Source: a virus (taxonomy: Duplodnaviria > Caudoviricetes). Taken from it: a stretch of 64,000 bases of DNA. Positions 33,164 through 62,403 of the stretch are shown in pieces. Below the pieces are notes generated by a model, which did no database searches, was not told the origin of the DNA, and worked only from the letters and a program-made list of their open reading frames with translations. The stretch is taken from the IMG/VR virus record IMGVR_UViG_3300026522_000028, positions 12,181-76,180 of that record; one strand, written 5' to 3'. Each line of letters opens with the position of its first letter. Position 1 is the stretch's first letter. Both the position numbers and the translations under genes were made by a program.

Positions 33164-33802
33164 TTATACGTTCGGCGGCGCAATCTTCCGCAACGCTTCG
33201 ATGAGTGCAGGGTTATCCCTGAACGCATCCATGACTGCGTTGTAGTCATCTTCGTTGAGCCGCACCTTCAGAATGTCATTGATGATGTTCATCGCCCTCG
33301 CGACGGTGGAATACGTGTAGACCTTCTCCTGAATCTCACCGATGTCCGTCGATAACGTCTGCTGGCGCAGCGTCATTCGGTCGAGCATATCGATGGTCTG
33401 CTTCAGTTCCTTGATGTCACAGGTTCCGTCGCCGAGCTTCTTGTTCAATTCATCGAGGGCAACGGTGATGATGTCAATCGCGCTCGTCACAAGATTCAAT
33501 GCCTGAACCTTCGTGCCGTAGACGTTCACCATCTTGTTCTCGGTGGGAACCTCGATGTCCCCGCCGAGGCCGTTGCTTCTGCACCACCGCGCAATCGTGT
33601 TGTGCGAAATCTTGTACCCTCCGGGGATGACACCCGAATCATTGATTTCCTTCGTGATTAGGCGGTAGCTTTCGCCCTTCATCCGTTTGTCGCGGATGAG
33701 CGGTGCGATGTTGTACGCTTCGATGAGCGTCTTGTTGTTGCCCGTGATGAAAGCCTTGTCATTTCCCGGAGGCGGTGGAGCCGATGGTCTTTTCTTTACC
33801 AT
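33164..33802 (-). CDS. Terminase small subunit (putative)
   Basis: N-terminal HTH-like region (ISHNTIARWC) plus helical region; first gene of the packaging operon. Confidence 0.65.
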   Translation of the reverse strand: MVKKRPSAPPPPGNDKAFITGNNKTLIEAYNIAPLIRDKRMKGESYRLITKEINDSGVIPGGYKISHNTIARWCRSNGLGGDIEVPTENKMVNVYGTKVQALNLVTSAIDIITVALDELNKKLGDGTCDIKELKQTIDMLDRMTLRQQTLSTDIGEIQEKVYTYSTVARAMNIINDILKVRLNEDDYNAVMDAFRDNPALIEALRKIAPPNV

Positions 33803-33857
33803 ACCTCTATACCTCCATACCTCTATAACGTCATACCTCTATACCTCTATGGAGGTA
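33800..33857. repeat. 8-bp-period ATAGAGGT array fused to the terS start codon
   Basis: catacctctatacctccatacctctataacgtcatacctctatacctctatggaggta. Confidence 0.85.
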
Positions 33858-33861
33858 CGCA

Positions 33862-35671: not shown

Positions 35672-35714
35672 GCGCGTATGCGTATACGTGCGCGCGCGCG
35701 CGCGTGCGCGTGTG
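35672..35714. repeat. 43-bp perfect purine-pyrimidine alternation (Z-DNA prone)
   Basis: gcgcgtatgcgtatacgtgcgcgcgcgcgcgcgtgcgcgtgtg. Confidence 0.8.
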
Positions 35715-35954
35715 GTGGCCGTCCGCAGCCGACAACGCTGTCAAGGTAAAATACTTGACAGGCCGTTGGTACATCTGCGAACGATAACTTTTGGCTATAC
35801 AATCCATAGCCTCATCCTATGGCATCCCTATTAATCCCTAGATAGAAGGAAAAACTTTTTTTCAGCTCCGGAAAACCGCCGCGAAGCCAATAACGACGCG
35901 GGCTGACAGCGTTTCAGATCGATCCGTTCGGCATCTGCTGCGCGAAATTCCCTG

Positions 35955-35983
35955 TTGACAACGAACCGATAAAGCGCTATACT
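35955..35983 (+). promoter_or_regulatory. Early sigma-A promoter P1
   Basis: TTGACA-acgaaccgataaagcgc-TATACT. Confidence 0.9.
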
Positions 35984-36073
35984 GTGAAGCGTCCAAAGGG
36001 AACAGGGACAACGCAAGACAGCGACCCTGCGCCCGTCGCGAATCGTCGAAATTCGACAGGACGAAAAAAGTCC

Positions 36074-36102
36074 TTGACAACGAACCGATAAAGCGATATA
36101 AT
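36074..36102 (+). promoter_or_regulatory. Early sigma-A promoter P2
   Basis: A-tract then TTGACA-acgaaccgataaagcga-TATAAT. Confidence 0.92.
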
Positions 36103-36265
36103 GGGGGCACCGAAAGGCAAAGAGGTCCATCCTACGAGACGACTCGGCTACGTGCATTGATTTGACACGCGAGTACGTCGTGGGGGGCGACGCTAAAACT
36201 CTATGCTTTTCATAGCTGCCATTGTACGCTCGTAGTCTGTCCATTGTCGCCGACGAAAAAAGTCC

Positions 36266-36294
36266 TTGACAACGAACCGATAAAGCGATATAAT
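36266..36294 (+). promoter_or_regulatory. Early sigma-A promoter P3
   Basis: Identical to P2. Confidence 0.92.
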
Positions 36295-36500
36295 GGGGAC
36301 ACAAGGTTGAAGGCCGCGAGGCCAATGACCTAACATTACACCGACGTTGGTAGCATCCCGAACAAGATTGCTACATGCCGTATTACTCTCTATGTAGAGG
36401 TCAGACTCTACCATCCAAACACGCGAGAAGCAACGCGTTATAACTCCCTGTCGCTATGTAACAGATGGCGCTCGTCATTGATGGCATAGGCAGACACGTA

Positions 36501-36517
36501 GTCCTTTGAAAACTGAA
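36501..36517 (+). promoter_or_regulatory. Firmicute rrn-type boxA-like element
   Basis: GTCCTTTGAAAACTGAA compared with rrn leader GTTCTTTGAAAACT. Confidence 0.6.
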
Positions 36518-36742
36518 GAAGTGTGTCCCAAAGCCTCCCCATAGCAGGCCCGCAAGAATCCTCTGTTTTGAACGGATACCACTATGGAAGACATGAAACA
36601 ATGCAAGCGCCGTGGGAAGGTGCGTAGCAGACGAAGGTCTGTGAGGTATACCGCACGATGTAGATGCTTTGGGTAGTGAGCACAAAATTCCTCTCCTGTA
36701 AAAAATTCCGTGACGAGCGCGGGCAACACCGTGCTCATCATG

Positions 36743-36781
36743 GGAGGAACTAGGTAGCACCTAGGGACTTCCAATTTTTTT
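36743..36781 (+). terminator. Intrinsic terminator ending the early leader
   Basis: GGAGG-aa-CTAGG-tagca-CCTAG-gga-CTTCC followed by aaTTTTTTT. Confidence 0.6.
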
Positions 36782-36837
36782 GCAAGTGTGATAACATATT
36801 TGTTATTGCAGTAACGGAATTACTAGGAGGAATAACT

Positions 36838-37068
36838 ATGAACGCCAGTATTGAAAGACTGCACCGCATCGAACGCGAAGTAACATTGGCAGGTAAAGAA
36901 ATCCTGTCGATTCGCTGCGACGCCCTCGGGTATCGTGTGCTGGAGTACGACGAGAAGAACGTCTGCACCCCCTACGTGGTTCACGCGTGGCTCCCGGGGA
37001 CTGGGCTCTTCGCAGGTCGATACTTCGAACGCAAAGAAGGCGCGGTGGCCGAGTTCGACCGTCATTGA
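36838..37068 (+). CDS. Early hypothetical protein
   Basis: AGGAGG RBS; 76 aa. Confidence 0.75.
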   Translation: MNASIERLHRIEREVTLAGKEILSIRCDALGYRVLEYDEKNVCTPYVVHAWLPGTGLFAGRYFERKEGAVAEFDRH

Positions 37069-37127
37069 CAGTAACGGCGGCATGATGATTCCCATCGTGT
37101 CGCTGGTAGTGGCAATGACGCCACAGG
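37069..37127 (+). repeat. Two-hairpin intergenic motif, copy A
   Basis: CAGTAA-CGGCGGCATGATG/CATCGTGTCGCTG-GTA-GTGGC-aatgac-GCCAC-AGG. Confidence 0.8.
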
Positions 37128-37147
37128 AACAACAGGAGGAATAAGCT

Positions 37148-37438
37148 ATGATGACATCTGTAATCGTCGATTATCGCGGAATGAACCATGAAACGGCTAT
37201 CGAATACAAATGGGTGTTGCGCGATATCGAAGCGGAGCAAGTGGAAATCCCGCATCTAATCCGCGAGGACAAAGAGCAGGGCATGACCTACGACGAGACG
37301 CTGGAAGACCTGCGGACCGCTCTCGTGCTTGACATGAATGACTGTGTTGAGAGCGACTACATCCGCGAGCTTCTGGGATGCCTTGACATCGACTTCCATG
37401 CCATCGCCGAAAGACTGATGGAAAACTATTGGAATTGA
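37148..37438 (+). CDS. Early acidic hypothetical protein
   Basis: AGGAGG RBS; 96 aa, D/E rich. Confidence 0.75.
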   Translation: MMTSVIVDYRGMNHETAIEYKWVLRDIEAEQVEIPHLIREDKEQGMTYDETLEDLRTALVLDMNDCVESDYIRELLGCLDIDFHAIAERLMENYWN

Positions 37439-37493
37439 TAGTGGCAGCGGCAAGGCAACGTCTTGCCGTTGGTAGTGTCAATCCCGACACAGG
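37439..37493 (+). repeat. Two-hairpin intergenic motif, copy B
   Basis: TAGTGG-CAGCGGCAAGGC/GTCTTGCCGTTG-GTA-GTGTC-aatccc-GACAC-AGG. Confidence 0.8.
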
Positions 37494-37512
37494 ATTAACA
37501 GGAGGAATTACC

Positions 37513-37731
37513 ATGACAGTACAGGGAATCGTTGCAACGTCCGCATTCGGCGGGCTCGAAGTTCTTGACATCGAGTACGGCCCGGAGGATCGCGTCGTGT
37601 ACCGCTGGTGCATCGACGGCAAAGAGGGGCGCATCTGCCGCGCAAAAATCCGTGATGATGTCGGTGGCCTTCCGTATTTCAAAACGCGGGGGCAGACGGT
37701 TTTCATGGATGACGTTCTCGCAGCACTCTGA
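37513..37731 (+). CDS. Early hypothetical protein
   Basis: AGGAGG RBS; MTVQGIVATSAFGGLEVLDIEYG. Confidence 0.75.
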   Translation: MTVQGIVATSAFGGLEVLDIEYGPEDRVVYRWCIDGKEGRICRAKIRDDVGGLPYFKTRGQTVFMDDVLAAL

Positions 37732-37738
37732 AAATCCG

Positions 37739-37796
37739 CAGTAATCTAGGCACGACAAGGAAGTCGTGTCTAGGGTAGTGGGGATTTTCCCACAGG
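37739..37796 (+). repeat. Two-hairpin intergenic motif, copy C
   Basis: CAGTAAT-CTAGGCACGAC/GTCGTGTCTAG-GGTA-GTGGG-gatttt-CCCAC-AGG. Confidence 0.85.
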
Positions 37797-37817
37797 AAAA
37801 GACAGGAGGAATTTACT

Positions 37818-37859
37818 ATGAGGCATCTAGAACGTCCCCCGCCGCCGCCTACATATTAA
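37818..37859 (+). CDS. Polyproline sORF MRHLERPPPPPTY
   Basis: CAGGAG RBS identical in type to those of neighbouring genes. Confidence 0.45.
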   Translation: MRHLERPPPPPTY

Positions 37860-37933
37860 TTTACGTATTATTGTAGGTGTACATGGAGGAAATGGAAATG
37901 CATTGGCGATAGTAGAGAATACGTAGTCGAATA

Positions 37934-38006
37934 GCCGAAACGACCGTTGGATGCATACAACGGTTGTCTGTCGGGAATGACCCCCCGGCACCGATGAGGC
38001 AGGTCA
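37934..38006 (+). ncRNA. Type II hammerhead ribozyme (U4C core variant)
   Basis: GCC-GAAA-C, stem III GACCGTTG/CAACGGTT, GUC site, stem I TGTCGGG/CCCGGCA, CCGATGA-GGC, loop I TGACC pairs with the 3' GGTCA. Confidence 0.88.
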
Positions 38007-38034
38007 GCCTAGGGAAAAGACAGGAGGAATTACC

Positions 38035-38346
38035 ATGAGACTGAAAACCGTTGAAAAGCTCATCAAGTACGCCGACATTCGCAAGGGTAGCGGCACGACA
38101 CTCGGGAACCATTGGGTATCGGTCGGTTCCCTGAAGTTGAGCGTAACCTTCGGATACCATTCGACGGCAATCGCCCGGGTCTTGTTCAATCACAAGACCA
38201 TCGAGTTCGACAATGGAGGCTGGGACACTTCGAGCACCAACACGGCTCTTCGCGACTACTTCGGCGAATACGTCGTAAAGCGCGGCTACAAAGACGTGAC
38301 GGACTACACGAAGCATGCAGACATTCGTCGTCGGCTCTATCGGTGA
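38035..38346 (+). CDS. Early hypothetical protein
   Basis: RBS; GYHSTAIA..DNGGWDTSST. Confidence 0.75.
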   Translation: MRLKTVEKLIKYADIRKGSGTTLGNHWVSVGSLKLSVTFGYHSTAIARVLFNHKTIEFDNGGWDTSSTNTALRDYFGEYVVKRGYKDVTDYTKHADIRRRLYR

Positions 38347-38383
38347 GGGACATTTTCCCACAGGAACAACAGGAGGAATAACC

Positions 38384-38794
38384 ATGAAAAACGCAACGGT
38401 CACATTCAAGAACGGCAAGACGCTGGGTATCTACGACGGCAAATTCTTCGGCGTCGAGGTATCGACGGAGCCGTGCATGAAAGGGCAGCTGGACTACTAC
38501 GCCATGATTCACGGATTCTGCGACGCAATGATTTTGAACAATGAAATCATTCGCCATGCCGATGACTGGGAGGTGGTAAACGGCAGCGACTACGATGAGG
38601 AAACGGGGGAGTATTTCGAGGTATTCCAGTATTTCATCATCGACGGCAATGGCGCGGAGTATCTGGAGGAATACACGGATCAACTCGTGTACTATAGCGA
38701 ATCGCTGGACATGTATCTGCTCGGGGTGACGCACTGCGGAACCGCGTGGGACTGCGTAAACTCTGGGTACGAGGTAACGGCAGAAGCCGAATGA
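38384..38794 (+). CDS. Early acidic protein (possible DNA mimic)
   Basis: RBS; EVFQYFII...LDMYLLGVTHCGTAWD; very D/E rich. Confidence 0.75.
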   Translation: MKNATVTFKNGKTLGIYDGKFFGVEVSTEPCMKGQLDYYAMIHGFCDAMILNNEIIRHADDWEVVNGSDYDEETGEYFEVFQYFIIDGNGAEYLEEYTDQLVYYSESLDMYLLGVTHCGTAWDCVNSGYEVTAEAE

Positions 38795-38819
38795 CACTAG
38801 GGACACAGGAGGAATTACA

Positions 38820-39137
38820 ATGAGATTCTATGGACATTGCATGGAGGAAAACGGCTTCGATGTAATCCGTGATTTCCGCATGGGCAAATGGGAGATTGCC
38901 GTGTCGGAGCCGTACAAGAATTACAAGGGTGAACCGAAAATCACGGTGCTTGTCGGTGACGATTTCGGCGGTGACTACGTGCATTGGTGGCTCTTCAAGG
39001 ATTCCGATGGTATCCAGAAACAGCACATCAACTACACGCAGGCGTCCGACGCATACATGCCGCCGCCGTACATCTGCAGGAAAATCGCAGAAGTCTTCCA
39101 GCGCACCGCTGAGGAGTATGGGATTTTGGAGGGATAA
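38820..39137 (+). CDS. Early hypothetical protein
   Basis: ACAGGAGG RBS. Confidence 0.75.
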   Translation: MRFYGHCMEENGFDVIRDFRMGKWEIAVSEPYKNYKGEPKITVLVGDDFGGDYVHWWLFKDSDGIQKQHINYTQASDAYMPPPYICRKIAEVFQRTAEEYGILEG

Positions 39138-39139
39138 CA

Positions 39140-39397
39140 ATGGAGGCACGCATTTATGGACTGCTGGAAAATCGTATCTACGATTCGGCCATGAGTTACT
39201 TTGGCAAACTGATGGAGGCACGAGAACACCACACGGAGGTGAATGTGTATTGCTCTGGGAGAGCACAAGGAAAAGTGTTTGCACTCATTGATTTTGCGGT
39301 AGCCGCTGGGATGACCGAGGATTACGCCGCATTGCTTTACAGAAAAGCACGGAAATCATTCGCGGTTCAGCACAATATGAGCGAGGAGGATTTGTAA
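39140..39397 (+). CDS. Early hypothetical protein
   Basis: GGAGG RBS; coupled to the upstream gene. Confidence 0.7.
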   Translation: MEARIYGLLENRIYDSAMSYFGKLMEAREHHTEVNVYCSGRAQGKVFALIDFAVAAGMTEDYAALLYRKARKSFAVQHNMSEEDL

Positions 39398-39588
39398 TGG
39401 AAAATCTGAAAACAATCGCCGCATTCATCGTAGCCACCGCAGCGCGTCCATTCGTGTCGCGACGGTTCCCCGTGTACGACGAGGGAGGCGTGATGGTATC
39501 GACGTATTCGATAACGCCCCGATTCGTCTGGGTGAATCGGGGGATTGCGCTGGTGATGCTCGGCGTATTCGTCGGGATGCACATCTGA
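39397..39588 (+). CDS. Small membrane protein
   Basis: TAATG overlap; hydrophobic C-terminus. Confidence 0.6.
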   Translation: MENLKTIAAFIVATAARPFVSRRFPVYDEGGVMVSTYSITPRFVWVNRGIALVMLGVFVGMHI

Positions 39589-39595
39589 AAATCCG

Positions 39596-39650
39596 CAGTA
39601 ATCTGGGCGCGTCAAGGGACGTGCCTAGGCTAGTGGGGATTTTCCCACAG
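39596..39650 (+). repeat. Two-hairpin intergenic motif, copy D
   Basis: CAGTAAT-CTGGGCGCGTC/GACGTGCCTAG-GCTA-GTGGG-gatttt-CCCAC-AG. Confidence 0.85.
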
Positions 39651-39668
39651 AAATAGGGAGGTATATCC

Positions 39669-39845
39669 ATGAAATACAAAATGAATGTCAAAGAAATCCT
39701 GTCTCGCACCGTGGAAATCGAGGCCGATTCGTTGGAGGACGCGAATCGAAAGGTCCACCAGCTCTATGATGCAGAGGAAATCGTGCTGGACTCTTCGGAC
39801 TGGCAGGAGACAATCATCGATGAGGCAGAAGAAGCGGAGGAATAA
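39669..39845 (+). CDS. DpnD/PcfM-like protein (58 aa)
   Basis: MKYKMNVKEILSRTVEIEADSLEDANRKVHQLYDAEEIVLDSSDW. Confidence 0.7.
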   Translation: MKYKMNVKEILSRTVEIEADSLEDANRKVHQLYDAEEIVLDSSDWQETIIDEAEEAEE

Positions 39846-39848
39846 ACC

Positions 39849-40109
39849 ATGAAGCGCTATGATAACTGGTATGGTATCAAGGAGTTCGATTTCATCTACT
39901 ACAACGAATGGGAGGACCCGACGCTTGTATTCGATGGGACGTCAATTAACGTCCATGACATCGAAGACTATTTCTGGGAGGAATACCTAGAGGACGGCGG
40001 TGAAGACCAGAATTTCGATGCATTCGGCGAATACCTGCGGGATAATGCCGATGAAGTTCTGGAGGAAGCGCGGAGAATTGCCGCAATCACAAGGGAAGAG
40101 GAGGCATAA
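39849..40109 (+). CDS. Early acidic hypothetical protein
   Basis: RBS; strongly acidic, 86 aa. Confidence 0.75.
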   Translation: MKRYDNWYGIKEFDFIYYNEWEDPTLVFDGTSINVHDIEDYFWEEYLEDGGEDQNFDAFGEYLRDNADEVLEEARRIAAITREEEA

Positions 40110-40111
40110 CG

Positions 40112-40306
40112 ATGGAGATCATCGGAACTAGGGAAACGTCAGAGGGATTCTACACACTTGTGCGAGGCGCGTATGGAATCGTCGTGTTGTTCAAGCGCAC
40201 ATCCAATCTGCTTCACCGATATGTTTTGAAATACGGTCAGAATCCATGCAAGGTGAAGACCATTGATGATGCATTGAAATGTGCATGGGATGAAACGGGG
40301 TGCTGA
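40112..40306 (+). CDS. Early hypothetical protein
   Basis: GAGGAGG RBS. Confidence 0.65.
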   Translation: MEIIGTRETSEGFYTLVRGAYGIVVLFKRTSNLLHRYVLKYGQNPCKVKTIDDALKCAWDETGC

Positions 40307-40587
40307 CAATGGAACCATTGAGAACTACTGTGGTGTTCCGCAAGTTTAGGGACGGCGATGTCATCGCATTGTTCCCAGAGGACGGGGAGTTTTCCAGCGG
40401 TCGCATCATGACCTACATGCACGACGGGCAGCACTGTTCTGCGCCGTATCCAGAAATCGTGCAAGGGACAATCCCAGCGATGCCGGAGGAATACGCCGAC
40501 CTGTTGGAGGAACTGAAATACGTTGGTTACATTCCGGTTGTGCGGAAGAAATGCCATGTAAAGTGGAGCTGCCAGTATCGGTATTGA
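40300..40587 (+). CDS. Early hypothetical protein
   Basis: VVFRKFRDGDVIALFP..YMHDGQH. Confidence 0.7.
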   Translation: MLTMEPLRTTVVFRKFRDGDVIALFPEDGEFSSGRIMTYMHDGQHCSAPYPEIVQGTIPAMPEEYADLLEELKYVGYIPVVRKKCHVKWSCQYRY

Positions 40588-40603
40588 ATGGAGGACTGAA
40601 ATC

Positions 40604-40951
40604 ATGAAGAACGAACAGAATTACAAGGGATTCGCGGCCATCCGTGACAAGGCGGTGGAGATTGGAATGCCGAAGTATTGGGCAACAGACCTAGGGATCG
40701 ACGCGATGTCCCTGTGGGAACACAAGGACACACCGTTCATCTGGATTCCTCGTGAGTGCGGCACGGCTCTCGTGCTGCTCGACGAAACGAACAAGACAAT
40801 ACAGGATTGCGGGCTGGGTATCGTAGACTACTATCGGACGCAGGAGGAGACAGCACGGTTCTTCTATTGGGACGGCGATAGGCTAACCGAGAAAACTGGA
40901 GATGAAGCCTACGATATAACCGCAACCGCATTCTCTGCAATCGCAGGATAA
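40604..40951 (+). CDS. Early hypothetical protein
   Basis: GGAGG RBS; 115 aa. Confidence 0.7.
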   Translation: MKNEQNYKGFAAIRDKAVEIGMPKYWATDLGIDAMSLWEHKDTPFIWIPRECGTALVLLDETNKTIQDCGLGIVDYYRTQEETARFFYWDGDRLTEKTGDEAYDITATAFSAIAG

Positions 40952-40968
40952 CATTTTGCAAAAACTAC

Positions 40969-40997
40969 TTGACAATGACACGATAATCGTCTATAAT
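40969..40997 (+). promoter_or_regulatory. Early sigma-A promoter P4
   Basis: TTGACA-atgacacgataatcgtc-TATAAT; ACGAT-A-ATCGT palindrome in the spacer. Confidence 0.88.
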
Positions 40998-41073
40998 GAA
41001 ACCATCGAGAGGCGATAGGGACAACAAAGATATACGCAGACGATAACATCTATGTGAACGGAGGAACGGAACA

Positions 41074-41421
41074 ATGAAATCCTATGACGAAATCGTTGAA
41101 GAAATCTACAACATGAACGATGAGGAAATCGTGAACATCTGGAATGAGTATTGCGACTACGCAAACAACGATGACCGCATCTATCCGATGGACGAGTTTG
41201 AGTCCATCGCAGAGCCGCCGTCGAAATGCTGGGACGAGTTCTGGGAAATGTTCGATGACCTGAAGGACTTCGACCGTAATGCCGCGTGGTTCTACAAAGA
41301 TGACCGCTGGGATTGCTGGACTTCCCTTGACAATCCTTGGGATGTAGTCAGTCCAGAGGATATGGCTAGGGCCATCGCCGATGGAGACTTCGATCCGAGC
41401 TGGGATTTTGAGGAGGAATGA
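41074..41421 (+). CDS. Highly acidic protein (possible DNA mimic / antirestriction)
   Basis: 115 aa, very D/E and W rich. Confidence 0.7.
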   Translation: MKSYDEIVEEIYNMNDEEIVNIWNEYCDYANNDDRIYPMDEFESIAEPPSKCWDEFWEMFDDLKDFDRNAAWFYKDDRWDCWTSLDNPWDVVSPEDMARAIADGDFDPSWDFEEE

Positions 41422-41425
41422 ACCA

Positions 41426-41734
41426 ATGGAAGTCACAGAACTTTCCCGTGACCAGCTCACGGAGCTCAAAGGGAATTACCTTGACGAACGAATGGACGGC
41501 AGCGCAAGCTGGGGAGAAATTGCCGACGCCGACGAAATCATCAGCGACGCCGAAATCTTTGAGGCATACGCGGGATACGAGTTCGGCAACGATGACTTCT
41601 TCTGCACCGCTGGAATTTCAGAGGACTTATTCGACGCCGACGAGCGGACTGTCCTAAGAAGCGTCCGCCAATGCGCCGACAGGATTACTTTGGAAGACAT
41701 CGAGCGCAACGCAAGCATAGTTTGCGCCGTGTGA
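41426..41734 (+). CDS. Early acidic hypothetical protein
   Basis: GAGGAGG RBS; MEVTELSRDQLTELK. Confidence 0.7.
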   Translation: MEVTELSRDQLTELKGNYLDERMDGSASWGEIADADEIISDAEIFEAYAGYEFGNDDFFCTAGISEDLFDADERTVLRSVRQCADRITLEDIERNASIVCAV

Positions 41735-41750
41735 TTGGAGGAATTGAACG

Positions 41751-42392
41751 ATGAAAGAGCAGAAAATCAGAGTGTATGTTCCGTCGATTCAGATGGTGAA
41801 GACCTACAGATACGACGAGCTGCCGGAGGAATCCAAGGGAAGCATTCGGGATGAATGGAGAGATGGCGATGATTACGATTGGTCGGAGGAGATTGCTTCG
41901 ATGAAAGCTATCGCGAAAGCATTGAACTGTGACCTGCGATACGAGCAGGACCCGTGGGGTTGGACTGTGAGACTGTCTCCGAACTTCGAGTACATAGACG
42001 AGGAGAAAATCAGCGGTGTGCGTGCTCTGGCGTACATCGAAAACAAATTCATCACGCCGAACGAGAAAGGGAAGTTCTATGGATACTTCTACAACTACGG
42101 AAAGCGCGAATACAGGGGAATCACGAAGAGTTTGGATTGTCCGTTCACAGGGTTCTGGCTGGACGATGACCTGCGGGTTGCCTATGAAATCTGGAAGGAT
42201 CACCTGCGTGGAAATCCGCAGATAACCGTCGAAGATTTCCTGATGTTTGTCGAGGACACGCTGAAGAAAGACTTGGATTCCATCGTCGAAGACCATCAGA
42301 CCGACGAGTATGTTGACGAAGAAATCGAAGCGAACTGGGATGACCGCTGGTATACCATCGACGGTAGGGATGTGACCGATGATATTGCATGA
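41751..42392 (+). CDS. Early hypothetical protein (213 aa)
   Basis: GGAGG RBS. Confidence 0.75.
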   Translation: MKEQKIRVYVPSIQMVKTYRYDELPEESKGSIRDEWRDGDDYDWSEEIASMKAIAKALNCDLRYEQDPWGWTVRLSPNFEYIDEEKISGVRALAYIENKFITPNEKGKFYGYFYNYGKREYRGITKSLDCPFTGFWLDDDLRVAYEIWKDHLRGNPQITVEDFLMFVEDTLKKDLDSIVEDHQTDEYVDEEIEANWDDRWYTIDGRDVTDDIA

Positions 42393-42399
42393 GTGTCCG

Positions 42400-42454
42400 C
42401 AGTAATCTGGGCGCATCCGATGATGTGCCTAGGCTAGTGGGGATTCTCCCATAG
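42400..42454 (+). repeat. Two-hairpin intergenic motif, copy E
   Basis: CAGTAAT-CTGGGCGCATC/GATGTGCCTAG-GCTA-GTGGG-gattct-CCCAT-AG. Confidence 0.85.
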
Positions 42455-42501
42455 AGGTATAGAGGTATAACGCTATAGAGGTATGGAGGTATAGAGGTAT
42501 G
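42451..42501. repeat. 51-bp octamer array; inverted near-copy (49/51) of 33800-33850
   Basis: atagaggtatagaggtataacgctatagaggtatggaggtatagaggtatg. Confidence 0.88.
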
Positions 42502-42759
42502 AAAATGTATCTGATTCTCGTAGATGATTCGTCGAATTGCACGACAATGCAGGCCGCGTTTTCCACTAGGGAAAAGGCGCAGGAGTTCTTCGCGAAAGAG
42601 ATGGAAGACTACTGGCCGAAAGCAGAGTGGAACAACGGCAGCTATGACATCGACGGAAAGACCGCCGAGGAATGCATTGAGAAGCTGGAGTTCTATGACG
42701 CTGGGGACAATCATCTGTACGGCATGGAACTCGAAGTTGACTCTGGTAAATGGATGTAA
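42499..42759 (+). CDS. Early hypothetical protein
   Basis: ATG lies at the end of the octamer array. Confidence 0.7.
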   Translation: MKMYLILVDDSSNCTTMQAAFSTREKAQEFFAKEMEDYWPKAEWNNGSYDIDGKTAEECIEKLEFYDAGDNHLYGMELEVDSGKWM

Positions 42760-42772
42760 GGAGGAACTAGCG

Positions 42773-43210
42773 ATGATTGACTATGAAAACAAAAAGATTG
42801 CCGTGGAGTGGAACGTCGATGACGTGCAGGATGTTATCAATGGGATGCGGTCGAACAATAAACGGTTCGTCCCTGCGCTGACCGAGGAAGAAAAGTTCCG
42901 GGTGCTGGTGTACTGCGAGGAAAACCACAATGCAGCCTATGGCATCAGTTGGGATTCCATCACGGATGCCTTGCACCGTCTCTATGGGGACAGAGAGAAA
43001 CGCTGTGCCTACGTCTATGACATCAATGAAACCATCGAAGACTGGGAGCGCAATCTCAAAACACGGTTCGTCCCTGCGCTGACCGAGGAGGAAAAGCAGC
43101 GTGCCGTTGACTACTTCGACGAGCACGATGACGGGAAGAAGTTCTTCTGGGATGGCATCGAGGAAGCATTGGACACACTCTATGGAGACAGGGAGGTCGA
43201 GGGAAAATGA
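42773..43210 (+). CDS. Hypothetical protein with internal tandem duplication
   Basis: RFVPALTEEEK...L..LYGDRE occurs twice. Confidence 0.7.
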   Translation: MIDYENKKIAVEWNVDDVQDVINGMRSNNKRFVPALTEEEKFRVLVYCEENHNAAYGISWDSITDALHRLYGDREKRCAYVYDINETIEDWERNLKTRFVPALTEEEKQRAVDYFDEHDDGKKFFWDGIEEALDTLYGDREVEGK

Positions 43211-44061: not shown

Positions 44062-44856
44062 CAATGGACTACAGCGAATTTCTGGCAGAGGTGAAGGTTC
44101 TGCGCTCCAAGGCAACCTACGAGGGATACAAGGCAGCGCTGAAGCACTTCCCGAATCCGACGAAGGAAAACATCATGAAGTACATCGAGAATCCGAAGTT
44201 CTCATCGAGCACAAAAAAAAGAACGCCTCCGTATTCTCGGAACTGCCCTCAGATGGTACAATAAGATGGACAGAGGAATCGAGCGAATCATCAAGGGATA
44301 CCGTGAGAACAAGACGGTCGAGCCCTGCCCTACCAATGAGCAGGTGGAGCTGGCATGGAACCAGCTCGGGAACAACAGAGACAGAGCGATGTTCGCGCTG
44401 ATGGCCTACAATGGTTTGCGTATCGGCGAAGTTCATGCATTGGATAGAGCCGACGTAGACATTGAGCATAACATTTTGACCGTTCGCGGAACCAAAGGTA
44501 AGCACGATGCAATCATCCCGCTCATCCATCCGAGAGTCCAGAAATACCTGTATGCATGGATGACCGAGCGCCACGATAACTACAAGGCATTGTTCATCGG
44601 GCCGAACGGTCGGCTGTCCTATGGATTTCTCAAGGTGAAATTCCATGAGTTGTTCCGCGATCTCGGCATGGAGTTCCATGCACATTCCCTCCGGCGCTAC
44701 TATGCCAATTCCATGTACAACGCAGGAGTTCCGTTGCAGGACATGTCAGTTGCCATGCGTCACGCCAATGTTTCCACGACGATGCGCTACCTGAACATTG
44801 GGCAGCAGAACGTTGTGGCTGCGCTCCAGCGCACATTCGCTGGAGCTACGGCGTAA
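44058..44856 (+). pseudogene. Xer-like tyrosine recombinase with a +1 frameshift in an A8 run (44213-44220)
   Basis: GLRIGE, TKGK, HSLRR, RHAN and TMRYL catalytic residues; removing one A fuses STKK to ERLRILG..MDRG. Confidence 0.85.
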
Positions 44857-44940: not shown

Positions 44941-45153
44941 ATGGAAAAGAAATATCCAACTGTTGAAAACGAGTACGGCGTTGCCATTGATTTCGAGGAG
45001 GCCGTGAATCTCATGGATGATGGCATCCGCGAATCGTTGAATGCCGAGCTTGCGCCGTGCAGCCCGCAGGAGTTCTTCGATGCATACTGCAAGTCGCATG
45101 AGCGGAAGTTCGGCGAACCGTTTGAATTTGCAAAGGAAAATCCTGTGGCATAA
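44941..45153 (+). CDS. AcrIC5-like anti-CRISPR protein
   Basis: IDFEEAVNLMDDGIRESL...QEFFDAYCKSHERKFG matches the AcrIC5 pattern as recalled from memory. Confidence 0.7.
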   Translation: MEKKYPTVENEYGVAIDFEEAVNLMDDGIRESLNAELAPCSPQEFFDAYCKSHERKFGEPFEFAKENPVA

Positions 45154-45453: not shown

Positions 45454-45609
45454 ATGATAAAAATCAGAACACCTTTCGCAATCGCAGCGGCAGTAATTAC
45501 TGTCATAGCTATCATTGCAAACCCAGAGAAAATGGCAGCGTTGCCGTGGTTTGCAGGGGTATCGACTGGGATTCTTGTAACGTATGTGGCATCGAAAGTC
45601 GAGGGATAA
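45454..45609 (+). CDS. Small two-TM membrane protein
   Basis: MIKIRTPFAIAAAVITVIAIIANPEKMAALPWFAGVSTGILVTYV. Confidence 0.55.
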   Translation: MIKIRTPFAIAAAVITVIAIIANPEKMAALPWFAGVSTGILVTYVASKVEG

Positions 45610-45610
45610 C

Positions 45611-46792
45611 ATGGAAAGTTCATTGAAATTCATCGATCTATTTTCTGGAGCAGGTGGTCTGTCCGAAGGACTTACGAACGCAGGCTTCCACAGTCTATTT
45701 GCATCAGAGATTGTACCTGTGTATGCTCAGACCTATCAGAAAAACCACGCAGATACAGAGGTATGCGTGGATGATATTCGAGGAGTTGACGCAGAGAAAA
45801 TCAGGGACGGCCTCGGACTAGCACGAGGAGAACTAGACCTGATTGCAGGTGGGCCACCGTGTCAGGGATTCTCCATCAATGCCCCGATCCGCAGTACCTC
45901 CGACAAACGAAACCATTTATTCAAAGAGTTCCTTCGCTTCGTCGATGCCTTTGCTCCGAGAGCAATCCTCATCGAGAATGTGCCGGGGCTGGTATCGTTC
46001 GAGCATGGTGCTACGCTGCATGCAATCCTAGATTCATTGGGAGCGCTGGGCTACGGAGCTGGGGTGCAGATTCTCGGCGCTGCATACTACGGAGTTCCGC
46101 AGATGCGCTGGAGAACCATCGTACTCGGCGTAAGGGAACGAGAGCTGCCAGTTGAGGCATATCCAGTTCCAATTTGCCACGCTCCGATAAGACCGAACTT
46201 CGCATCGACATTCGATGGAAAGACCATCGTCCGCACGCCGTCATCGGAATCGAGCGCAAACTTCACAACGGTAAAAGATGCTATCGGCGATCTCCCACCG
46301 TTGAAGAGTGGTGAACGCGGAGAGGAGTTCAAGGCATATCCAGTCGAGCCGCAATGCGATTATCAAAGACGCATGCGCCGTGGATGCGCTGGGGTTTACA
46401 ATCATGAAGCTCCGATGCTTTCAAAGATTAACATGGAACGTCTGAAATACATCAAGCCCGGCGGCAACTGGACAGACATTCCGTTCGACCTGCTTCCGAA
46501 GGGAATGCAAAAAGCCAGACGTTCCGACCATACGAAACGCTATGGCCGCGTTACTCCCGATGGTTTGGCTTCGACAATAATGACGAAGTGCGACCCGCAT
46601 TGGGGAGCTTTCTTCCACTACGAACAGGATAGGTCATTCACCGTGAGAGAGGCTGCGAGAATCCAGTCTTTCCCAGACCACTTCGTATTCACGGGAAATC
46701 AGGCAGAGCAATTCGCGCAGGTTGGCAATGCCGTACCACCGCTACTCGCTGAGTCAGTTGGTCTTTCCTTGCGTTCCGTGCTGGAGGCATGA
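45611..46792 (+). CDS. dcm: DNA (cytosine-5) methyltransferase
   Basis: DLFSGAGG, GGPPCQGFS, IENV, QMRWR, VREAARIQSFPD, QVGNAVPP. Confidence 0.95.
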   Translation: MESSLKFIDLFSGAGGLSEGLTNAGFHSLFASEIVPVYAQTYQKNHADTEVCVDDIRGVDAEKIRDGLGLARGELDLIAGGPPCQGFSINAPIRSTSDKRNHLFKEFLRFVDAFAPRAILIENVPGLVSFEHGATLHAILDSLGALGYGAGVQILGAAYYGVPQMRWRTIVLGVRERELPVEAYPVPICHAPIRPNFASTFDGKTIVRTPSSESSANFTTVKDAIGDLPPLKSGERGEEFKAYPVEPQCDYQRRMRRGCAGVYNHEAPMLSKINMERLKYIKPGGNWTDIPFDLLPKGMQKARRSDHTKRYGRVTPDGLASTIMTKCDPHWGAFFHYEQDRSFTVREAARIQSFPDHFVFTGNQAEQFAQVGNAVPPLLAESVGLSLRSVLEA

Positions 46793-46793
46793 C

Positions 46794-47699
46794 ATGTCAG
46801 GATATATCTATGAAATATTTGGCTACCGTGTCAACGACGAATCCGATGTAGCTCGGTCGTATGCGGCGAAAAAAGTATGCCCATTCCTAGGAACACAATG
46901 CACCAAGGTTTTGTCGAGAGATCGCACAATAGCCGGCGTTTGTTCTGTGCATCAAAAAAAGGACAAGACTCCTGTCATCTGCTGTCCTATTCGGATGTAC
47001 GCAGATGACTATGCTATGCTTCGTCGCATTGCAAACATCGCTTTTCGCCGTGATCTTCCGCTATTCTCTGGCCGTCTCGCAGTTTCAGAAGCGCGGAAGA
47101 ACAACGGAGCTATCGCCGTGTTCGGTCACGGATGGGGAGGAGAACTTCGGCTGCCGAACAGAAACGGTGCTGGGTCATATTTCGTTGATTGGATTCTGGC
47201 ACGCCTTGACGAACGAGGTCGGCTCGAAGACTTCACAGCAATCGAGGTGCAGACCGTAGATACAACGGGGAGTTATCGAAGAGCACGCGAGGAAGCTATC
47301 GAGCATCGACAATCCATCCCTGACACCCTCGGACTGAACTGGGAGAACGTGTCGAAACGAATCCTCCCGCAGCTCATCTATAAAGGACAGGTTCTACAGC
47401 GGGAGGAACTATGTCGCACGGGGCTTTTCTTTGTATGCCCATCGCCTGTCTTTGCTCGTGTCCTGAATCGACTGGGAGGCAAAGACAACCTTCCTATTTT
47501 CCCGATGCAGCCAGCTTCGATCAACTTCGTTAACTATGATTATCTTAGAGAGCCGACGAAGGATGGCTGTGTTCTTCCTCTTGGAATCATCGAGCAGCAT
47601 TCGACCACCGTTTATAAAATACAAGAGGCATTTTCTTCGGTTAGTCTACCAAATGGCAATGTATATCGCGACGCCATCATGAAAGCCCTCTATGAATAA
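46794..47699 (+). CDS. NotI-family restriction endonuclease
   Basis: Cys4 pattern CPF..C..GVCS..CCP.R; AIEVQTVDTTGSY; NWENVSKRILPQLIYKG. Confidence 0.8.
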   Translation: MSGYIYEIFGYRVNDESDVARSYAAKKVCPFLGTQCTKVLSRDRTIAGVCSVHQKKDKTPVICCPIRMYADDYAMLRRIANIAFRRDLPLFSGRLAVSEARKNNGAIAVFGHGWGGELRLPNRNGAGSYFVDWILARLDERGRLEDFTAIEVQTVDTTGSYRRAREEAIEHRQSIPDTLGLNWENVSKRILPQLIYKGQVLQREELCRTGLFFVCPSPVFARVLNRLGGKDNLPIFPMQPASINFVNYDYLREPTKDGCVLPLGIIEQHSTTVYKIQEAFSSVSLPNGNVYRDAIMKALYE

Positions 47700-62176: not shown

Positions 62177-62369
62177 CCTGCTCCTTCCGATGACGGCGAT
62201 GCAGCTCCATCTCTTTGCGTGCCTCGGCCTCGACGATCTTCATGTGATCCTTGTGGCGATTGATGTCCATCATCGGAGCTTTCGCCGCTGCATAGTGGTG
62301 GCTCTTGTTGAAATGCTTTGCGAGCTCCACGAGTTTTCCTCTTGCTACCATAGATTCCTCCGTTCTCAT
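62160..62369 (-). CDS. Hypothetical protein
   Basis: Start lies at the octamer array. Confidence 0.55.
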   Translation of the reverse strand: MRTEESMVARGKLVELAKHFNKSHHYAAAKAPMMDINRHKDHMKIVEAEARKEMELHRRHRKEQVANEN

Positions 62370-62403
62370 ACCGTTATACCGTTATAGAGGTATACCGTTA
62401 TAG
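62367..62403. repeat. Octamer array ATACCGTT/ATAGAGGT
   Basis: cataccgttataccgttatagaggtataccgttatag. Confidence 0.8.

Follow-up and report, generated by a model that had tools for sequence, protein, structure and literature searches.

RNase III acts on duplexes of about 22 bp and prefers to cut intergenic regions within transcripts (PMC6212723); its classic sites in Bacillus subtilis are stable stem-loops with small internal bulges, and the early mRNA of phage SP82 is a known target (PMC4838370). The early sites of phages T7 and T3 (R0.3–R1.3) and of SP82 are repeated irregular hairpins of about two turns between early genes, with related sequences at several sites, and their processing is thought to yield individually stable messages. 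In SP82, a purine-rich ribosome-binding site (RBS) just downstream adds to the stability of the 5′ end (PMC7509114, citing Hue 1995; PMC4838370). For hammerhead ribozymes clustered around single prophage genes, a role in the cutting of long phage transcripts has been proposed (Perreault et al. 2011, PMC3088659). Here we describe a repeated hairpin element of about 60 nt in the early gene array of a tailed phage of an anaerobe. The stretch analysed (the window, 64,000 nt) covers bases 12181–76180 of the IMG/VR record IMGVR_UViG_3300026522_000028, which is 76,180 nt long and rated complete by CheckV; positions are those of the window unless a relative is named.

The early array consists of small plus-strand genes and runs from promoters at 35955–36294 to about 47.7 kb. 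An earlier note on this DNA, made from the sequence alone, had claimed five full copies of a structured motif in it, and their (C/T)AGT starts do lie at 37069, 37439, 37739, 39596 and 42400 (copies c1–c5, Table 1). By pattern search as well as by covariance model, the whole 76,180-nt genome has these five copies and no others, all on the plus strand, with model scores of 75–88 bits on that strand and 18–27 bits on the other. The placement between stop codon and RBS is also as claimed, each copy starting 1–7 nt past a TGA stop and ending 20–30 nt before the next ATG, and the parts of the copies are as described: a 12–13-bp stem, a (G/C)TAG linker, a 5-bp stem with a 6-nt loop and an AG(G/A) tail. 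The copies exceed chance, because the 20-nt 3′ part of the element occurs three times where 0.01 occurrences are expected. All spacers of the array longer than about 40 nt contain a copy or a hammerhead, save the one that bears an internal promoter.

Table 1. Positions of the hairpin copies, their remnants and other features of the early region of the window. P1 and P2, lower and upper stem of the long hairpin; P3, alternative 5′ hairpin; ORF, open reading frame.
Feature	Position	Strand	P1 (5′/3′ strand)	Core (5′ vs 3′ strand)	P2 (5′/3′ strand)	P3	Remarks
Copy c1	37060–37124	+	37060–37067/37113–37120, CGTCATTG with CAATGACG	CAGTAA 37069–37074 vs TAGTG 37107–37111	37075–37086/37094–37105	37109–37124	Covariance model 77 bits; P1 takes in the TG of the TGA that ends ORF 36838–37068 and the two codons before it
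Copy c2	37430–37490	+	37430–37437/37479–37486	TAGTGG vs TAGTG	37445–37456/37460–37471	37475–37490	Covariance model 75 bits; P1 overlaps the TGA stop at 37436–37438
Copy c3	37730–37793	+	37730–37737/37782–37789, GAAAATCC with GGATTTTC	CAGTAA vs TAGTG	37745–37756/37763–37774	37778–37793	Covariance model 86 bits
Copy c4	39587–39648	+	39587–39594/39637–39644, GAAAATCC with GGATTTTC as in c3		39602–39613/39618–39629	39633–39648	Covariance model 88 bits; after ORF H (39397–39588)
Copy c5	42391–42452	+	42391–42398/42441–42448, GAGTGTCC with GGATTCTC, one U·U mismatch		42406–42417/42422–42433	42437–42452	Covariance model 78 bits; 8-mer tandem array downstream
Remnant, 3′ module alone	38343–38361	+					P3-like hairpin GTGAGGGACATTTTCCCAC; before the RBS of ORF E; stop of ORF D inside
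Second remnant, 3′ end of a copy	38793–38803	+					GACACTAGGGA; complete in relative L143 (1826–1901)
Type II hammerhead ribozyme	37933–38008	+					Equivalent intergenic slot; Rfam Hammerhead_II, 40 bits (gathering score 37)
13-codon mini-ORF	37818–37859	+					MRHLERPPPPPTY; RBS after c3; upstream of the hammerhead
Three near-perfect sigma-70-type promoters	35955–36294	+					Head of the early array; promoter scan
Fourth promoter, perfect TTGACA-17-TATAAT	40969–40997	+					Within the array; promoter scan
AcrIC5 anti-CRISPR homologue	44941–45153						85 bits
DpnD/PcfM-like protein	39669–39845
Restriction-modification pair	45584–47699						C5 cytosine methylase, then NotI-like restriction endonuclease
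Small Xer-like tyrosine recombinase	44266–44856						In the early array; 263 aa in relatives, e.g. L166 7373–8164

In each copy the earlier note saw two hairpins. Both parts exist as it described them, and what it missed is an outer stem, P1, so its overall picture is incomplete. On folding, the loop of the second hairpin plus its flanks proves complementary to an 8-nt stretch that lies at the upstream stop codon or immediately behind it, and the minimum-energy fold is therefore a single long hairpin. In all five copies this hairpin has 24 pairs and three 1×1 mismatches, at −32 to −37 kcal/mol, and the five are the most stable plus-strand structures of the early array. From the base it runs through P1 (8 bp), a 1×1 mismatch, CA paired with UG, a G·G mismatch, UA paired with UA, another 1×1 mismatch and P2 (12–13 bp) to a loop of 3–8 nt; the core between P1 and P2 thus reads CAGUA on the 5′ strand and UAGUG on the 3′ strand. 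The former second hairpin, here P3, has the form GUGNN-6 nt-NNCAC. It shares nucleotides with P1, and since the linkers would be of zero length the two exclude each other, so that P3 (−6.5 to −8.8 kcal/mol) is to be seen as an alternative structure rather than a second domain. A pseudoknot holding P1 and P3 at once was rejected on these grounds. The upstream stop codon lies in or beside the 5′ strand of P1 in every copy, and the RBS is unpaired in the P1 state as well as in the P3 state.

For comparison, 43 copies, 16 of them distinct, were collected from the window phage and from relatives found by pattern scans and exact-protein look-up: L143, a metagenome contig that bears five copies; ten contigs from the rumen that are highly similar to the window (L164–L173); and a more distant relative (L130 = L135 = L150) whose ORF E protein is 57% identical. 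Over the 16 distinct copies, 96.4% of the cells of the long hairpin pair, and double-sided changes occur at 14 of the 24 pairs; the observed covariation score was reached by none of 500 shuffles, and control structures with slid partners pair at just 34–50%. This bears out the claim that the stems differ between copies while pairing, with its G-U wobbles, is kept. Single substitutions between orthologous copies preserve pairs (G-U to G-C, C-G to U-G), and the copy at 1686 of L172 has most of P2 rewritten with its pairing retained.

The fold of the plus strand is better than that of the minus strand by 6–15 kcal/mol in 15 of the 16 variants because of the G-U pairs, and all copies lie along the direction of transcription. 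The element is therefore a structure of the sense strand in single-stranded form, in agreement with the plus-strand RNA structure that had been proposed. P1 has 8 bp and P2 12–13 bp in all variants, with loops ranging from 3 to 8 nt, and stem lengths held constant despite sequence turnover fit an enzyme that measures helices. The UAGUG of the 3′ strand is invariant (16/16 copies), and GGC/GCC in the middle of P2 and AU/AU in P1 stand at fixed distances from the core in all or nearly all of the 16. The 5′ core strand varies (CAGUA, UAGUG, AACUA, UGCUA), and two variants (L135:3412 and L143:384) have a C-G pair where the others have the G·G mismatch.

Among nine distinct copies, 44 of the 45 cells of P3 are paired, and two of its pairs covary. 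The nine represent about four independent 3′ modules, for which the chance of such pairing is about 0.01 by rough estimate, and they lend modest support to P3 being kept. That support is strengthened by the survival of P3 alone in the partial copy that had been noted near 38343 and that we find at 38343–38361; in three relatives the homologue of ORF E, which follows it, is preceded by a full copy (L165 5474–5548, L171 1397–1469, L135 3412–3484). The second remnant (Table 1) is not listed in the earlier note. Each of the two remnants corresponds to the 3′ module of a copy that relatives have in full. Shortly ahead of the RBS that serves the first early gene, GCAGTAACGG at 36808–36817 repeats the 5′ core of c1, with 9 of its 10 nt matching CAGTAACGG at 37069–37077. 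About 0.5 such matches are expected by chance, and this one could be coincidence or what is left of a copy.

The hammerhead that had been noted before ORF 38035 was verified above its Rfam gathering score (Table 1) and is the only one in the genome. Cleavage is predicted after C37968, and the downstream RNA would then begin flush with the 7-bp hairpin of stem I, leaving the RBS free. The mini-ORF has a strong RBS, and mini-ORF and hammerhead are conserved as one travelling module in L171 (mini-ORF at 960–1001, with PPPSP in L171); the polyproline run suggests ribosome stalling, which might control the folding or cleavage of the ribozyme.

In the early array of the L130/L135 lineage, the equivalent slots, just past a stop codon and about 25 nt ahead of AGGAGG, are taken by a single motif copy and by five hammerheads of type II. 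The five hammerheads stand in successive intergenic slots (minus strand of L130, 10487–7446, the same as L135 1834–4875), three above the Rfam gathering score and two below it at 29–31 bits. The exchange can be followed beside individual genes: the homologue of ORF H (45% identity, E 4e-11) has a hammerhead after it in L130 and c4 after it in the window, and the homologue of ORF C is preceded by the module of mini-ORF and hammerhead in L171 and by c2 in the window. Since the hairpin is swapped with a hammerhead beside the same genes, the two most plausibly serve the same purpose, cutting between cistrons. Two further hairpins of the L135 lineage were left uncounted as below threshold (L130 8427–8370, with a 14-bp stem and 11.6 bits, and L135 at about 1400–1450); they resemble degenerate kin of the element.

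The proposal of the earlier note, in which the motif serves to cut the polycistronic early mRNA into per-gene units or to stabilise it as such, thus gains comparative support from the hammerheads at the same slots beside homologous genes, and the processing step that we propose is a prediction. We think it likely that the element is a processing site of some kind; for the narrower reading, a site of RNase III-type processing or insulation in the polycistronic early transcript, we put the chances at about even. Of the three mechanisms offered in the earlier note, RNase III cleavage as in T7 and SP82 fits best, because the duplex is irregular, about 24 bp long and of constant length. The element shares several features with RNase III substrates (PMC6212723, PMC4838370): a helix that spans about 24 bp and is broken by small mismatches only, stems of constant length, indifference to the loop, a dyad-like core and an intergenic position inside a transcript. 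RNase III needs a mostly continuous duplex of about 20–22 bp or more and tolerates small mismatches, and the hairpin offers 24 pairs with three 1×1 mismatches.

In the mechanism that we propose, the uncut RNA would form the long irregular hairpin, with P1 made by the sequence of the upstream stop codon, and a double-strand-specific endoribonuclease, most likely host RNase III, would cut in the core. The predicted cut falls between UA and GUG of the invariant UAGUG, giving 5′-phosphate ends at 37109, 37475, 37778, 39633 and 42437. The 5′ end of the downstream mRNA would then refold into P3, directly ahead of an unstructured purine-rich RBS, and the upstream mRNA would terminate in or beside P2. 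Each gene would thus receive a separate, stabilised message insulated from its context, the same outcome as that of a hammerhead in the neighbouring or orthologous slot; the product would match the hammerhead product in having a hairpin-flush 5′ end (P3 as against the 7-bp stem I) and a free RBS.

Several points weigh against this reading. Cleavage of the hairpin is argued solely by analogy with the hammerhead. An RNase III domain (PF14622) was not found in the phage proteins, so that the reading would call for a host enzyme. The invariance of UAGUG (16/16) exceeds the usual sequence needs of RNase III; it could reflect a dedicated protein, or the copies, which come from a narrow clade, may simply share a recent ancestor and have undergone gene conversion. 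The motif is absent from four phages whose terminases are 75–81% identical (models R1/R2, run on the loci and on the whole records), and also from two distant arrays that carry homologues of ORF E with tight gene spacing and no hammerheads; it is therefore dispensable. Finally, a cut of both strands would strip P2 from the upstream mRNA, so that a protective 3′ hairpin requires cleavage of a single strand.

Among the alternatives, an uncut structural spacer or insulator is unlikely, if the best placed. It would block 3′ exonucleases and keep the structures of neighbouring cistrons from interfering with one another, with ribosomes terminating at the stop codon melting P1 and so producing the P3 form. 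The stop codon in or beside the 5′ strand of P1, the maintenance of two mutually exclusive stems and an RBS that is unpaired in either state all suit such a role, whereas the exchange with hammerheads at orthologous slots does not, since cleavage is the defining activity of a hammerhead; nor does a plain barrier need the constant geometry of 8 + 12 bp or the invariant UAGUG. Equally tentative is a bolder scheme: the element would be the substrate of a dedicated endoribonuclease, or self-cleaving, and not an ordinary RNase III site, with a P1/P3 switch set by ribosomes that terminate on the upstream stop, so that cutting and downstream stability would depend on how the gene before it is translated. 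Hammerheads and hairpins would then make up a natural plug-and-play insulator system, in which anti-defence cassettes can be shuffled and still be expressed.

A somewhat weaker candidate, and an improbable one, is a site for a dedicated sequence- and structure-specific RNA-binding protein or endoribonuclease, either one of the many unannotated early phage proteins or a host factor other than RNase III, which would bind the conserved core and there cut or regulate. The invariant UAGUG, the GGC/GCC and AU/AU pairs at fixed core distances and the dyad-like core (AGU/AGU) would follow readily, and most early proteins, from which such a protein could come, have no Pfam or NCBIfam match. However, no candidate protein was found, the conserved positions are equally explained by shared ancestry in a narrow clade, and the 5′ core strand varies.

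Recombination needs a closer look, as the element had also been proposed to be a cassette boundary for shuffling anti-defence genes. When the window is compared with relatives very close to it, the elements prove 97–100% identical, but the genes that they separate are unrelated or in permuted order. Positions 436–471 of L143 are 100% identical to 37107–37142, with unrelated genes on either side. In L165 the stretch that corresponds to 38038 (RBS/ATG) to 38352 (P3 remnant) of the window holds a different gene, of 103 aa, in place of ORF D, with a full copy where the window has the remnant alone; in L171 the order is copy, mini-ORF and hammerhead, ORF C, copy, ORF E. The mosaic junctions of close relatives do therefore fall in the elements, as that proposal expected, but at varying positions (immediately before TAGTG, inside P3, at the RBS/ATG) and not in a site-specific manner.

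The element as primarily a DNA-level recombination site, a stretch of homology or a hairpin for cassette shuffling in the manner of phage T4 PeSL or integron attC, is improbable too. Like those, it is an imperfect hairpin-forming repeat bordering small accessory cassettes shuffled among relatives. A tyrosine recombinase gene lies in the array, and in one variant, the copy of c2 at 1719–1790 of L168, the apical 9 nt are exactly inverted (GGCAACGTC to GACGTTGCC), a DNA-level flip of the hairpin tip that is typical of DNA hairpins. The recombinase is however a generic Xer-like one that reaches 31 bits on the integron model TIGR02249, whose cut-off is 265, and the varied junctions fit ordinary homologous recombination, for which hammerheads and the shared RBS serve equally well. 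In contrast to attC and PeSL there is no integron integrase, none of the 16 variants has attC boxes (RYYYAAC/GTTRRRY), and no copy has a promoter-like site on the plus strand, the criterion for T4 PeSL; the fold lies in the mRNA-sense strand, where G-U pairing and compensatory changes indicate selection on a sense single-strand fold. Because junction positions vary and the recombinase is generic, elements, hammerheads and the shared RBS are best taken as homology for ordinary recombination, and the shuffling looks like a consequence of the conservation of the element and not its purpose.

That the element is a new class of self-cleaving ribozyme, a P2 + P3 conformer whose CAGUAA and SUAG joining strands form the active site, we regard as very unlikely. 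Its surroundings are rich in hammerheads, with which it shares its slot, and Weinberg and colleagues reportedly found new ribozyme classes in hammerhead-rich contexts in 2015. Against this, the P2 + P3 conformer falls far short of the long hairpin in stability, and a complex junction or pseudoknot is sterically impossible for helices that share nucleotides and have zero-length linkers. The earlier suggestion of an unrecognised ribozyme is further weakened by conserved nucleotides lying within a near-continuous helix, by the two variants with C-G in place of G·G and by the altered 5′ core in two variants, and no ribozyme family matches at E up to 10.

Least credible is a role as terminator or attenuator of transcription, with readthrough by an antitermination complex loading at a boxA-like CCTTTGAAAACTG in the leader (at about 36503–36516): strong hairpins do stand directly past stop codons, yet the absence of a U-tract after every copy, where CCCACAGGAA or CCCATAGAGG follows instead, excludes it, none of the five copies is listed by the terminator scan, and a terminator would not be exchanged for a hammerhead. 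Mimicry of a type I-C CRISPR repeat, prompted by a resemblance to GUGG..AUU in c3–c5, was rejected as well, c1 and c2 lacking the resemblance and the stems varying. As for an RNA anti-CRISPR, a solitary repeat mimic expected to be nearly identical to a CRISPR repeat and to keep one short stem, no CRISPR-DR family matches the copies, and the sequence of the 12-bp stem differs between them.

The scans of Rfam 15, of the whole window at gathering scores and of 36500–43000 at E ≤ 10, place no family on any copy. Their only match is the Hammerhead_II at 37933–38008; RAGATH, twister, twister-sister, pistol, hatchet, HDV, hairpin and CRISPR-DR are unmatched. Within reach of the pattern scans, the motif occurs solely in this phage clade and in the L130 lineage, all from rumen-type samples. 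Loose pattern scans and an exact 3′-module scan of IMG/VR gave chance matches only, apart from L130; in GTDB genomes only chance matches to the 3′ module were found, and blastn of the region gave no match among GenBank phages. The element is thus a new, narrowly distributed and previously uncatalogued RNA motif of about 60 nt.

By function it is best filed with the phage early-mRNA processing hairpins, among which its stop-codon-linked lower stem, built-in alternative 5′ hairpin and interchange with hammerheads are unusual. It has no sequence relation to the T7, T3 and SP82 sites, and differs from them in that its lower stem uses the upstream stop region, that P3 overlaps this stem and that hammerheads take its place; cleavage is here a prediction. 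With the clustered prophage hammerheads it shares the slot, the array, the presumed job and a hairpin-led downstream product. Unlike them it has no core (no CUGAUGA, GAAA or GUH) and no three-way junction, and it would need a protein nuclease.

A further likeness is to synthetic RNA-processing insulators, such as the RiboJ ribozyme plus hairpin and the Csy4 and RNase III sites placed between cistrons to separate them, in which each gene is given a cleavage element, a small hairpin and a free RBS; this design makes gene cassettes independent of context and exchangeable. In contrast to these the present element is natural, and its role as an insulator is putative.

The genome that carries the array has phage genes for terminase, portal, NrdD and DnaB/primase; its terminase is merely 34–35% identical to that of the nearest cultured phages, and contigs near-identical to the window come from rumen metagenomes. 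By scan, promoters occur at 35955, 36074, 36266 and 40969 only. They lie in four repeats of about 50 nt (35941–36302 and 40955–41005) with the common design TTGACAACGAACCGATAAAGCG(A/C)TATAAT. The three tandem promoters precede a leader of about 540 nt and are the presumed source of the polycistronic transcript that bears the elements, and the terminator scan finds no canonical terminator from there to the end of the array. The 213-aa protein upstream of c5 has no IMG/VR relative by pattern search. For the recombinase the longest ATG ORF in the window is 196 aa, so that its start may differ or be disrupted.

Two kinds of repeat were also seen. An alternating purine-pyrimidine (GC/GT)n run at 35685–35712 lies inside a strong hairpin upstream of the promoters. 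Tandem 8-bp units of the ATAGAGGT and ATACCGTT types stand directly 3′ of c5 (42451–42510, plus strand), overlapping the start region of the next gene, and recur at 33800–33860 (inverted, near the terS-side gene) and at 62368–62403.

There is good support for the element as a candidate new RNA family, and the proposed mechanism predicts RNA ends between UA and GUG that depend on RNase III. Synthetic biology in Gram-positive bacteria or anaerobes may also gain from it a natural insulator part of compact size, made up of cut site, 5′ hairpin and RBS. If the processing reading is true, one lineage would use, in one operon, two unrelated and exchangeable devices to the same end, one a ribozyme and the other a hairpin that depends on a protein, which would give direct natural evidence on the purpose of clustered phage hammerheads, a question open since their description (PMC3088659). 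For the early and anti-defence genes of these phages, among them those for AcrIC5 and DpnD/PcfM in this array, conserved non-coding punctuation can double as the homology for mosaic shuffling.

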